This document shows positions 16,094 through 18,612 of a stretch of 64,000 nucleotides of DNA, piece by piece; position 1 is the first letter of the stretch; each line of letters starts with the position of its first letter. This stretch comes from Escherichia coli (GTDB lineage Bacteria; Pseudomonadota; Gammaproteobacteria; Enterobacterales; Enterobacteriaceae). The stretch is from NCBI RefSeq assembly GCF_003790525.1, contig NZ_CP033635.1. One strand, written 5' to 3'. The notes below the pieces were generated by a model that saw nothing but the letters and a program-made list of their open reading frames with translations, made no database searches and was not told where the DNA came from. Made by a program: the position numbers and the translations under genes.

Positions 16094-16990
16094 TTAACAT
16101 ATAACTTCACGCTCTTCTATTAAATCAAAAACATTATTCGTAGTGTAATGTTCCCATCTTTTATTATATCCCTCTTTCGACAAAATTGAGACATCATCCG
16201 TTCCTTCTCCCTCATCTAAACCATGCATGAAACAAACTCCAGCAACATTAGAAAGAACATATCTATTATGCAGACATTCATTACCCTCGCGAGAAGTTAA
16301 AGACTTAAATGTTACTGATAATTTAAAATCGTCTGGAAAGACAAGGTTTTCGCGGTTCAACTTATTAGCCAAATAATTCACCGTTGGGGAGTTTTCTTTA
16401 CTCCCATCAAATATAACATCTATCTTTAAATTTTTTTTATAAGAGTTATTAGCACTAACGCTAAGTAATGAAATAAATACATTCCACCATCTTTGTTTGT
16501 CACTAAAGTATGGGTCAACTATAATAATATGCTCTGATGTTTTTAATAAGCGTGAGATTATAGATATCATATCCTCAGCAATTCTAGCAACAATTTTTTG
16601 CCGAGCATAATTTAACCCAAAGAAATCATCTATATTAGTTACATCAAGGTTATCACAAGGAGTAGAACTCACTACATGATCAAATTGTTCAATTCGATTT
16701 ACAGCAGAGATGTTATCTGACCATGACATGTCACCAACATAATCATAAACCCTACTAACCTTATTATTTTTCAAAAAAATAATAAGGTCCTCTAATCGTT
16801 TTTTTTGAAGTTCACTATGATTAGCATTTAATAGCCCAAGCAATTGTTTTTTATTTCTCTTCAGCTTTGGTAATTCACTATAGAGAAAGTTACCGCCCGT
16901 AGAAAATCCTTTTATGAAGTCACGATAATTTCTCCGATCAATTGCGATCTCAAACAAAGCCTCTGGTGAAATGGCGCATTCGTAGAACAT
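16094..16990 (-). CDS. hypothetical 298-aa partner of ATPase (candidate effector)
   Basis: Start ATG overlaps ATPase stop (TAATG); no family recognised by eye; weak Rx6H pattern (REGNECLH) near C-terminus. Confidence 0.5.
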   Translation of the reverse strand: MFYECAISPEALFEIAIDRRNYRDFIKGFSTGGNFLYSELPKLKRNKKQLLGLLNANHSELQKKRLEDLIIFLKNNKVSRVYDYVGDMSWSDNISAVNRIEQFDHVVSSTPCDNLDVTNIDDFFGLNYARQKIVARIAEDMISIISRLLKTSEHIIIVDPYFSDKQRWWNVFISLLSVSANNSYKKNLKIDVIFDGSKENSPTVNYLANKLNRENLVFPDDFKLSVTFKSLTSREGNECLHNRYVLSNVAGVCFMHGLDEGEGTDDVSILSKEGYNKRWEHYTTNNVFDLIEEREVIC

Positions 16991-18612
16991 TAAAAAAGCT
17001 CTCCCCTTCTTTCTTCGAAGAAACCTTTGGGCCATTTTTGTTTGAAGTCACCATCATCAGTAATATCTATTTTCCTAGTAACAGTCGAACCATTATTATC
17101 CTCGAAAACGATCACTGATATAAAATCAGGTTTTACTGGGTAATTTGATTCAGGTAATTCATTGTCCGTTGTTTGTCTAATTCTTTTTAAAATTCGAAGC
17201 AAAATGTGCTCACTATGTGTTTCGACTAAAAACATAGGTCTTTTAACATCAAGGGGATATTGGGTAAACAGATCACCTACAGCGAGTTGTAAAGCGGGAT
17301 GAATATGTAGCTCAGGCTGCTCTATAGCAATTAATCCATCCTGAACTATATTGGCTGCAATAATAAGAGGTGCTATCTGAGTTAATCCGACACCGACTTG
17401 ATTTGGAAATAACATTTGGCTTGAATCTATTTTACAGAAGTAAACATTATCTTTCAGACCTAAAAGTTGAGGGGAGGTTTTTATATCAAATTCTCCTCCA
17501 CTAAATATATTATAATTAGTGTTTAGTTTATCTCTATTGGAAAACCAATCACTTACTTTTTTAATCAAATCACTATCATTTTGTTGAGATAAACACAGCT
17601 TATCCCATGCTGATGTACCATCAAACCATCCATTTTGTTCTGGATAAGGATTTGGCGTAAATGAAGAATCAGGTATAATTCTTAACGGTCCAATAGATAC
17701 GCTAGCCTTTAAATAATTATTTAATTTATCTAACGGAGAAGTAAAAACTTGCGTTAGCACTCTGGTGATTATATCTCGATTAAAATACTCAACTGGCTCG
17801 GATATATCAAAAACTTTCAAATTTGTATCAACAGTTCTTCCCAGTTGAGGTAACGCACCAATTTTCGTCTTTAAAAAAACAGGAAACATTGGTTTTTCTT
17901 TATCTTCTTCAAATATATAATCAACAGTTTTTACTCGCTCTGTTGCACCACTTTTATTACGTTCTAAGCCAGGAATTAAGTCATTTAAAGATATTTCAAA
18001 TTCACTGGCAATCGTATCTAATCCTTCCTTATCAATAGATTCAAGCCATAAATTATAATCAATAGGAAGAAGCAACGGATGAGTAAAGTTCAATCTATTT
18101 ACTAAAGATGATTTAGTATACTCATCATTACTTAGCTCTCCAATAAATTCATTATTTATAGAAACAGCATAGTTCTTTATATATGCTGCTCTGTGCAATT
18201 GTGACCATGCGATTTTAAACTCTACATAAACCTTTTCAGTTTCATCTGCAATGTCTTTCATTTTTATAAAATGAATATCGAAAATATCACCAAGTTCTTC
18301 TAAATATGTTTTATATTCTACACCTATTGTTTGTTCAGGATCGAAACCGATACCAATAGTAATTACATTATTCAGATCCCCATTATGGACTAGAGATCTA
18401 AATCCATCTATGCGCCTGTTCCCCATAGCTTCTAAATATATAGGATCACACTGCTCACGGTCTAATATTTGTTGAAGATAAAATAATGCAATTAAAATAG
18501 TAGTCTTGCCCGCGCTGTTTGGCCCCAATAGTAATGTTACAGGTGCAAAATCAATTTCCTGCCGCTCTCTAACAGATCTGAAATTTTCAAGTACAAGTTT
18601 AGTTAATTTCAT
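16990..18612 (-). CDS. AAA_21/ABC-type ATPase (OLD/AbiEii-like fold) with C-terminal extension
   Basis: Walker A GPNSAGKTT near N-terminus; C-terminal LIAIEQPELHIHPALQ...FLVETHSEHIL (signature/D-loop/H-loop-like); starts 8 bp after hsdS stop. Confidence 0.7.
   Translation of the reverse strand: MKLTKLVLENFRSVRERQEIDFAPVTLLLGPNSAGKTTILIALFYLQQILDREQCDPIYLEAMGNRRIDGFRSLVHNGDLNNVITIGIGFDPEQTIGVEYKTYLEELGDIFDIHFIKMKDIADETEKVYVEFKIAWSQLHRAAYIKNYAVSINNEFIGELSNDEYTKSSLVNRLNFTHPLLLPIDYNLWLESIDKEGLDTIASEFEISLNDLIPGLERNKSGATERVKTVDYIFEEDKEKPMFPVFLKTKIGALPQLGRTVDTNLKVFDISEPVEYFNRDIITRVLTQVFTSPLDKLNNYLKASVSIGPLRIIPDSSFTPNPYPEQNGWFDGTSAWDKLCLSQQNDSDLIKKVSDWFSNRDKLNTNYNIFSGGEFDIKTSPQLLGLKDNVYFCKIDSSQMLFPNQVGVGLTQIAPLIIAANIVQDGLIAIEQPELHIHPALQLAVGDLFTQYPLDVKRPMFLVETHSEHILLRILKRIRQTTDNELPESNYPVKPDFISVIVFEDNNGSTVTRKIDITDDGDFKQKWPKGFFEERRGELF

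Follow-up and report, generated by a model that had tools for sequence, protein, structure and literature searches.

A candidate second-line anti-phage module at the 3' end of type I restriction-modification operons: a predicted NsnB-NsnC-type ATPase-effector pair without NsnA

Introduction

What is the function of the two genes that directly follow hsdS, the specificity subunit gene of a type I restriction-modification (RM) operon, in Escherichia coli? The question is raised by positions 16,094 to 18,612 of a 64,000-nucleotide stretch of the contig NZ_CP033635.1 (RefSeq assembly GCF_003790525.1), the whole of which is termed the window below. The first of the two genes encodes an ABC ATPase and the second a protein of no recognised family, which we call the partner. 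An initial annotation of this DNA regarded the two as an ATPase-plus-effector pair, and this view is supported by the homology of the ATPase to NsnB and AriA, the predicted fold of the partner, the recurring synteny in other genomes, and the ATPase-nuclease pair PDC-M01 found at the same place in a sister allele. Judged from sequences and predicted folds, the module is a translationally coupled NsnB-NsnC-type pair without NsnA, terminal in the type I RM operons of many lineages. We propose, with a probability of roughly 0.6, that it acts as an abortive-infection (Abi)-type second-line anti-phage module at the 3' end of the RM operon.

Results

The two genes and the ATPase

All genes of the block, namely hsdR, hsdM, hsdS, the ATPase gene and the partner gene, are encoded on the minus strand (Table 1). 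The initial annotation had the ATPase gene starting 8 bp after the hsdS stop codon and its own stop codon overlapping the partner start as TAATG, with products of 540 and 298 amino acids (aa); all of these coordinates hold, and only the strand needed to be specified. The ATPase stop codon and the partner ATG share a single base, and the Shine-Dalgarno-like GAAGGGGAG is located 5' of the partner ATG. The spacer between hsdS and the ATPase gene contains AAGG, which is likewise Shine-Dalgarno-like and reads TAAGG together with the hsdS stop codon. Further upstream, hsdM and the start of hsdS overlap by 4 nt. An alternative start that would yield a partner of 313 aa is disfavoured, as M1 of the 298-aa form is kept in 98% of 97 homologues. 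The ATPase and partner open reading frames (ORFs) are not regarded as chance products because both are long, lie in DNA of 32-33% GC, and have hundreds of full-length homologues.

The ATPase was confirmed as ABC-type, albeit with Pfam AAA_15 matching more strongly (at both ends of the protein; 1e-12 and 2e-7) than AAA_21, the family named initially, and with an additional weak match to DUF3696 at the C-terminus. Among the models in PADLOC-DB v2, PDC-M55A was the top match (1.4e-40; best stretch, residues 405-534), followed by NsnB of the Menshen system (3.2e-37), HEC-03B (6.7e-25; C-terminal part) and AriA of PARIS (5.5e-22; alignment over residues 1-471). The ATPase is component "A" in the HEC-03 preprint, so that the preprint and the PADLOC model use swapped letters. 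The GajA, PtuA and Old models matched only around the P-loop (PtuA, first ~45 residues; GajA, P-loop or Walker B). No family was assigned above the cutoff by NCBIfam to either the ATPase or the partner.

Motif conservation was assessed in an alignment of 30 family ATPases. Besides the Walker A and the atypical Walker B (Table 1), the family is characterised by a GP.R motif that replaces the Q-loop, a G.G..Q signature, an ETHSEH H-loop, and a tail motif WP.GFF.ER..EL, in which W527, P528, G530, F531, F532, E534 and E538 are invariant. The ATPase is an NsnB-like member of the SMC/OLD clade. In the Walker B, Gln (Q432) stands at the usual position of the catalytic Glu. The family-wide E-Q-P-E resembles the engineered E-to-Q mutant of ABC ATPases that is dead in hydrolysis, and one may speculate that the EQ dyad makes the protein an ATP-bound switch with slow turnover. 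Residues ~81-300 are hypervariable, with a mean majority-residue frequency of 0.25 versus 0.58-0.72 in the core, and residues 200-242 are predicted with a low predicted local distance difference test score (pLDDT).

The partner

The partner was described initially as belonging to no recognised family and bearing neither TOPRIM nor HNH, and both descriptions stand. Pfam searches with the partner alone, and with each of the 97 homologues, found nothing significant; three weak MIT_C matches were the only ones among the homologues, and no DUF4435 or TOPRIM was detected. The AriB, HNH, HEC-03 and PDC models of PADLOC did not match the partner, and PDB sequence searches with partner profiles found nothing. 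A word-indexed search recovered only close enterobacterial relatives, and the wider family was exposed by an exhaustive profile search against cluster representatives (50% identity), which gave 1007 of them at E <=1e-3 and 371 at E <=1e-10. Among the matches listed, nearly all are ~300 aa in length and aligned end to end.

The structure of the partner was predicted with a pLDDT of 97 and comprises a PIN-like N-terminal domain and a C-terminal domain of the PLD superfamily. The structures matching the N-terminal half are PIN domains (1y82, 8.6; Utp24, 8.1; Nmd4, SMG5 and VapCs, 6-7). Foldseek against AFDB50 retrieved 294 matches at E <=1e-3; no characterised protein was found among the 50 listed matches, most of which are named "Uncharacterized protein" and a few of which bear automatic names.

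Conserved positions of the partner were read from the 97 sequences. The initial annotation pointed to a weak Rx6H pattern, which turned out not to be the informative motif; that motif is D159...H241-N-R243, an HxR of the PLD/MIT_C-like type. The C-terminal domain carries H-N-R-Y-x-L-[TS] with an invariant Arg where Lys is usual, as in MIT_C/PB-PLD1, and G257 and D265/D266 are conserved as well. In the N-terminal domain, conservation is restricted to E4, P9, P41, R65, R80 and W90, so that the partner appears to lack the full acidic quartet of PIN domains.

Table 1. Features of the locus in the window.
Feature	Position	Strand	Basis and remarks
hsdR, type I restriction subunit, ~1137 aa	21458..24874	-	ORF; RefSeq: DEAD/DEAH helicase family protein
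hsdM, type I methyltransferase subunit, 544 aa	19760..21394	-	ORF, RefSeq
hsdS, specificity subunit, 380 aa	18621..19763	-	TAA stop 18623..18621; ORF, RefSeq
hsdS-ATPase spacer, 8 nt, GGTTCATT	18613..18620	-	direct sequence reading
ABC ATPase, 540 aa	16990..18612	-	ATG 18612..18610, stop 16992..16990; RefSeq "AAA family ATPase" WP_000778955.1
ATPase Walker A, GPNSAGKT, residues 30-37	18502..18525	-	G30, N32, G35, K36 invariant in 30 members
ATPase hypervariable insert, residues ~81-255	17850..18372	-	candidate sensor surface
ATPase atypical Walker B, E431-Q432-P433-E434	17311..17322	-	E431, P433, E434 invariant; Q432 >=90%
ATPase DUF3696-type C-terminal tail, residues ~495-540	16993..17130	-	Pfam DUF3696 residues 495-539, E 0.008 (weak)
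Partner (putative effector), 298 aa	16094..16990	-	ATG 16990..16988, stop 16096..16094; RefSeq "hypothetical protein" WP_000499115.1
Partner PIN-like N-terminal domain, residues 1 to ~128	16607..16990	-	predicted fold
Partner PLD-superfamily (MIT_C-like) C-terminal domain, residues ~129-298	16097..16606	-	predicted fold
Partner D159 of VDPYF motif, right after beta-strand	16514..16516	-	99% acidic; P160 96%; counterpart of the conserved D/E of PB-PLD1 (PMC12065111)
Partner H241-N242-R243 (CAT AAT AGA), HxR variant of PLD HxK	16262..16270	-	H 98%, N 84%, R 100%
Terminator-like hairpin, 12-bp stem	15967..15993	-	~100 bp past partner stop; pattern match only, weak T-tract
P4-type integrase remnant, last 46 codons	15716..15853	+	tblastn, 74% identity to residues 372-417 of the integrase of L002

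Related loci and linkage to type I RM

Related loci were collected from one genome per species with a 12-sequence subset of the partner family as the query, resulting in 36 loci, to which three metagenomic loci and two plasmids were added. An ATPase gene is located directly 5' of the partner gene in every locus in which the upstream gene is visible, with an overlap or a gap of no more than ~3 nt. Among the 32 informative genome loci, 13 have hsdR-hsdM-hsdS directly before the pair in the same orientation; hsdS is separated from the pair by a single inserted gene, PDC-S08, in one, and is 1-5 kb upstream in five, with Avs4, CBASS plus an HNH protein, PDC-S32 or, in two of the five, ORFs without an assignment in between. 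Overall, hsdRMS is found upstream on the same strand in ~60% of the related loci. The RM-linked loci belong to Gamma-/Betaproteobacteria, Desulfobacterota, Binatota, Acidobacteriota, Planctomycetota, Myxococcota and Schekmanbacteria and involve at least two type I families. The interval between hsdS and the ATPase gene is filled by Avs4 in L026 (3090-8189) and, in L043 (4583-7680), by the lipase and cyclase of CBASS together with an HNH protein. As complete known systems have been inserted there, we regard the hsdS-ATPase junction itself as a hotspot for insertion.

In approximately one third of the family loci, type I RM is missing from the neighbourhood, and the pair directly follows an RtcR-like activator gene and a sigma-54 promoter. 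In a rough neighbour-joining tree of the ATPases, which has no support values and is suggestive only, RM-linked forms are intermixed with RM-less ones. Thus, as RM-less, RtcR-linked copies exist and are interleaved in the tree, the pair does not seem to need an RM enzyme strictly. A second, more divergent pair of ATPase and partner-like genes forms a tandem with the canonical pair in L023 (4699-8204) and L030 (4798-7445); it lies directly 5' of the latter, and one RtcR-like gene with its sigma-54 promoter precedes both. The partner-like protein of this second pair begins with MPLLAEYAITPDV. No gene for DUF262/NsnA adjoins the pair in the ~36 related loci, and no ORF with DGxQR/QRxxxW was found in the window or adjoining the pair in the related loci.

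The RtcR-like sigma-54 activator was detected in 22 related loci and comprises Sigma54_activat, AAA lid and HTH_8 domains, with an N-terminal domain that matches RtcR only faintly. In 11 RM-linked loci including the Azotobacter plasmid (L012, L013, L015, L018, L022, L024, L028, L032, L036, L037 and L049), hsdR is the gene directly behind it. In 11 RM-less loci (L016, L019, L021, L023, L027, L030, L031, L033 and L040-L042) it adjoins the ATPase gene, usually directly upstream and divergently transcribed in three. A TGGCAC-N5-TTGC promoter with at most one mismatch follows right after the activator stop codon in 17 of the 22 loci. In the activator-bearing bacteria, entire type I RM operons thus appear to be inducible through sigma-54 and a bacterial enhancer-binding protein. 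The association of RtcR-like genes with RM has been noted before (Makarova et al., 2014, PMC4012209). The E. coli window gave no tblastn match to the RtcR-like gene and contains no TGGCAC-N5-TTGC site upstream of hsdR; the Enterobacter locus and one Pseudoalteromonas locus are likewise devoid of the regulator.

Distribution in E. coli and the variable slot

A 3.1-kb query covering the pair was found in 274 of the 5426 complete E. coli genomes (~5%), always on the chromosome, and 272 of these carriers have it at an identity of 99% or more. The hsdM family of the window is present in 424 of the 5426 genomes, but the pair in only 274. We found no phage record carrying the partner, and only two plasmid records.

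Within window positions 16000-21400, the GC content steps from 51-53% in hsdRM to 37% in hsdS, with which the variable low-GC cassette begins, and to 32-33% in the ATPase and partner genes. A sister allele in E. coli RIVM_C037791 (L046) shares hsdRM at 96% identity, and its homology to the window ends exactly at position 19760, the hsdM/hsdS junction; the same slot (L046:4310-6677) is occupied by a different hsdS and PDC-M01, which consists of a PtuA-like ATPase and an HNH nuclease. An IS1-flanked insertion carrying the OXA-244 carbapenemase adjoins the PDC-M01 slot in this allele. In E. coli ACN002 (L047:4880-6749), the same ATPase gene is truncated by IS3 at the position equivalent to 17964 of the window, and hsdS differs in the first target recognition domain (TRD1), whereas TRD2 and the ATPase are 99% identical. 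Because of the GC step and the end of homology at the hsdM/hsdS junction, we consider hsdS and the pair to constitute an exchangeable cassette. The initial annotation had envisaged that the whole RM-plus-module block arrived as an island; with these GC steps and this homology break, the block is better described as a mosaic than as a single arrival.

The P4-type integrase remnant, on which that proposal leaned, is real, being labelled by RefSeq as a frameshifted partial integrase. It is convergent with the module and separated from the partner stop codon by 241 bp, and an intact integrase occupies the equivalent position in the metagenomic relative L002. The hsdR homologue of L002 matches HSDR_N, ResIII and EcoEI_R_C of Pfam. 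Neither a tRNA gene nor an att site was found in the window. Scans for promoters and terminators gave results at background level and were not used as evidence, save for noting the one hairpin in Table 1. In the 63-bp hsdR-hsdM intergenic region, a GC-rich terminator-like hairpin (21426-21445, minus strand) suggests that hsdM-hsdS-ATPase-partner may be transcribed apart from hsdR.

The window, a chromosomal island of E. coli, is otherwise rich in defence-like genes. Downstream of the locus on the minus strand (10664-14306) are genes for a WYL-domain HTH regulator (13410-14306), a PDC-M09A-like protein of 359 aa (12282-13361), and a PDC-M40B-like protein of 523 aa (10664-12235), the last of which is named "ATP--cob(I)alamin adenosyltransferase" in RefSeq, probably a misannotation. 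These three genes may represent a second candidate defence cassette. On the hsdR side, we identified a MazG-like gene (26293-26559), a gene for an XRE/peptidase protein similar to PD-Lambda-2_B and CapP (27026-28108), a pair of genes for a hypothetical and a thymidylate-synthase-like protein (28111-30032), and a dGTPase gene (31512-32744).

Discussion

A proposed second line behind restriction

If the pair operates as proposed, the DUF3696 tail of the ATPase oligomer would contact the PIN-like domain of the effector and thereby keep the latter inactive. The ATPase, probably via the variable insert, would sense a phage-derived cue, for which anti-restriction proteins or infection escaping restriction are candidates. 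An ATP-dependent rearrangement would then free or activate the effector, and the PLD-like domain would attack nucleic acid, as a phosphodiesterase or a nuclease, to abort the infection, making the module a second echelon behind restriction. In most other lineages, an RtcR-like activator would drive the operon from a sigma-54 promoter, and the E. coli copy would have lost both. We infer the defence function from the AlphaFold 3 (AF3) models of Menshen, the release of the effector in PARIS, the need for both genes in HEC-03, the back-up roles of PrrC, Ronin and PARIS, and the CoCoNuT superoperons; complex formation, trigger and substrate of the pair are likewise proposed rather than observed.

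Several points weigh against this proposal. The family is known from sequences and predicted folds, and the proposed ATPase-effector contact and trigger are borrowed from the Menshen models and PARIS. The partner has no Pfam family and no convincing PADLOC v2 model, as the best match, NsnC, reached an E-value of only 0.003. The MIT_C domain of MITD1, one of the folds closest to the C-terminal domain of the partner, is known as a membrane binder and not as an enzyme, so that the HxR domain of the partner may be no nuclease. With Gln at the catalytic position of the Walker B, ATP hydrolysis may be slow or absent. Finally, most relatives have an RtcR-like regulator that is missing from the E. coli copy, the regulation of which may therefore differ.

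The alternative that survives best, which we nevertheless regard as unlikely, is that HsdMS or HsdR restrains the pair in the manner of PrrC or Ronin and the pair fires only once the enzyme has been disabled by an anti-restriction protein (Ocr, ArdA or Stp-like); the RM complex would in effect take the role of NsnA as a sensor. The position right after hsdS kept across phyla and at least two type I families, and the exchange of the module and hsdS together as one low-GC cassette, are consistent with such a dependence, as are the precedents of PrrC and Ronin. The alignment of the ATPase to the AriA model over most of its length (residues 1-471) points in the same direction, and PARIS senses Ocr. 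On the other hand, one third of the loci have no type I RM nearby, the two forms interleave in the ATPase tree, Avs4 and CBASS sit between hsdS and the ATPase gene in several loci, and TRD1 of hsdS differs in E. coli ACN002 while the ATPase is 99% identical. Since the RM-less copies argue against a strict dependence on RM, we rank this alternative second to a module that acts behind restriction on its own.

It is improbable that the ATPase and a PLD-like nuclease extend type I restriction without killing the host, for instance by degrading DNA after cleavage by HsdR or by covering a second class of targets. The strict co-orientation and coupling with hsdRMS would suit such an accessory, yet RM-less copies of the pair exist, the systems most closely related to it (Menshen, HEC-03 and PARIS) are autonomous ATPase-effector systems, and no DNA-recognition domain is evident in either protein. 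A role other than antiviral, either in an RtcR-type response to stress or RNA damage (for instance, RNA end processing by a PLD-like phosphodiesterase) or as a toxin-antitoxin-like addiction cassette stabilising an island, seems slightly more improbable still, as the RtcR-like activators and sigma-54 promoters heading most family loci, the control of RNA repair by RtcR proper, and the frequent RNA binding of PIN-like domains are set against consistently defence-rich neighbourhoods (type I RM, Avs4, CBASS, Dsr1, PDC candidates and dGTPase), the lack of linked RtcA or RtcB, RtcR homologues already known to head defence superoperons, and an E. coli copy without such a regulator.

Beyond the second-line module favoured here, we tentatively entertain a broader possibility, to which we give less than even credence, namely that the pair is the constant core of a widespread unnamed cassette with an exchangeable upstream input (NsnA in Menshen; an RtcR-like CARF/sigma-54 activator here, with type I RM operons embedded between this regulator and the pair). 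As a dedicated second echelon, the pair would fire when restriction fails or is blocked by anti-restriction proteins, by means of an HxR PLD-like nuclease activated on its release from the ATPase. Were this the case, the locus of E. coli would be a derivative that has no regulator and is constitutively wired, and the HxR PLD/MIT_C-like domains, including those of BrxL and eukaryotic MITD1, would be catalytic.

The pair is common, broadly distributed and easily tested, and does not represent a new principle. It is present in ~5% of the complete E. coli genomes, yet its effector is recognised by neither PADLOC v2.0.0 nor Pfam, and it would evade screens for embedded genes because it is appended after hsdS instead of being nested between the genes of a system. 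If defensive, it would provide a common and easily clonable case of restriction first and an Abi-type nuclease second, and it would show that the NsnB-NsnC core of Menshen works with other inputs. It also offers a handle on type I RM operons under sigma-54 and an RtcR-like activator, and a way to find out whether PLD/MIT_C-like domains with HxR have enzymatic activity.

Comparison with known systems

The initial annotation left room for an exact match to a named system, and none was found; what the pair resembles is NsnB-NsnC without NsnA. A full-text literature search found no paper naming WP_000778955 or WP_000499115. PARIS, Septu, Gabija, AbiL, PrrC/RloC and HEC-03 were rejected as exact identities, as the partner lacks their defining effector domains. 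In Septu, PtuA matches only ~45 N-terminal residues of the ATPase, and the partner has no HNH; for Gabija, a TOPRIM domain and a downstream helicase gene are both missing, and the GajA match is local. The three-gene cassette PDC-M55 (FAM_00005>>FAM_02935>>FAM_00004) was also rejected, since only PDC-M55A matches and the partner matches no PDC model. The pair is akin to Menshen NsnBC, PARIS or HEC-03, yet falls outside each of them in the following respects.

Menshen (NsnA-NsnB-NsnC; Millman 2022; Li et al., 2025, PMC12065111) is the most similar. In NsnB, the Q motif is changed to Arg, SGG to GxG, and the DE dyad to EN, and an NsnC variant combines an inactive PIN-like N-terminal domain with a MIT_C-like PB-PLD1 domain that bears D/E after a strand and an HDR motif; in AF3 models of NsnB4-NsnC2, two DUF3696 tails surround the inPIN domain (PMC12065111). 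The ATPase here is of the NsnB type with a DUF3696 tail, a Q-loop Arg, a GxG signature and a non-DE Walker B (EQ here and EN in NsnB), and the overlapping downstream effector has a PIN-like N-terminal domain and a PLD/MIT_C-like C-terminal domain with a D...H-x-R site. Menshen also often lies near type I RM. In contrast to Menshen, NsnA (ParB-DUF262 plus ParBDB) is not found upstream, where hsdS or the RtcR-like activator stands instead, and the effector reaches the NsnC model only at the E-value given above.

HEC-03 is a two-gene system of an ABC ATPase and a PIN-domain partner that is associated with other defence systems, and both genes are needed for defence (Payne et al., 2024 preprint, 10.1101/2024.01.29.577857). 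Its partner is, however, a VapC-like PIN without a PLD domain, no HEC-03 model matches the effector here, and HEC-03 is found embedded in Hma systems rather than appended to hsdS. PARIS shares the ABC ATPase, and AriA sequesters a separate nuclease to release it on sensing a phage anti-restriction protein. In contrast, AriB is a DUF4435/TOPRIM nuclease whereas the effector here is PIN-like plus PLD-like, and AriA does not have the interaction through a DUF3696-type tail that has been proposed for NsnB.

Restriction is backed up by PARIS, PrrC and Ronin, and PrrC/RloC/Ronin and PDC-M01 resemble the pair as back-up modules within or adjoining type I RM operons. PrrC and RloC differ in being single polypeptides with anticodon-nuclease domains, and RonA of Ronin is a membrane peptide of 61 aa. 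The PDC-M01 pair of ATPase and HNH fills the identical slot in the sister E. coli allele, albeit with an HNH nuclease and an ATPase only distantly related to that of the module.

In CoCoNuT type II/III-A, superoperons headed by RtcR continue with type I RM and close with an Abi-like system (Bell et al., 2024, PMC11090510). The E. coli locus, with neither the regulator nor the sigma-54 promoter, departs from this arrangement, and the terminal module is an ABC ATPase plus PIN-PLD pair, not the McrBC-like CoCoNuT. Most of the relatives, on the other hand, are ordered in the same way, namely as activator, sigma-54 promoter, hsdRMS and a terminal Abi-like module.

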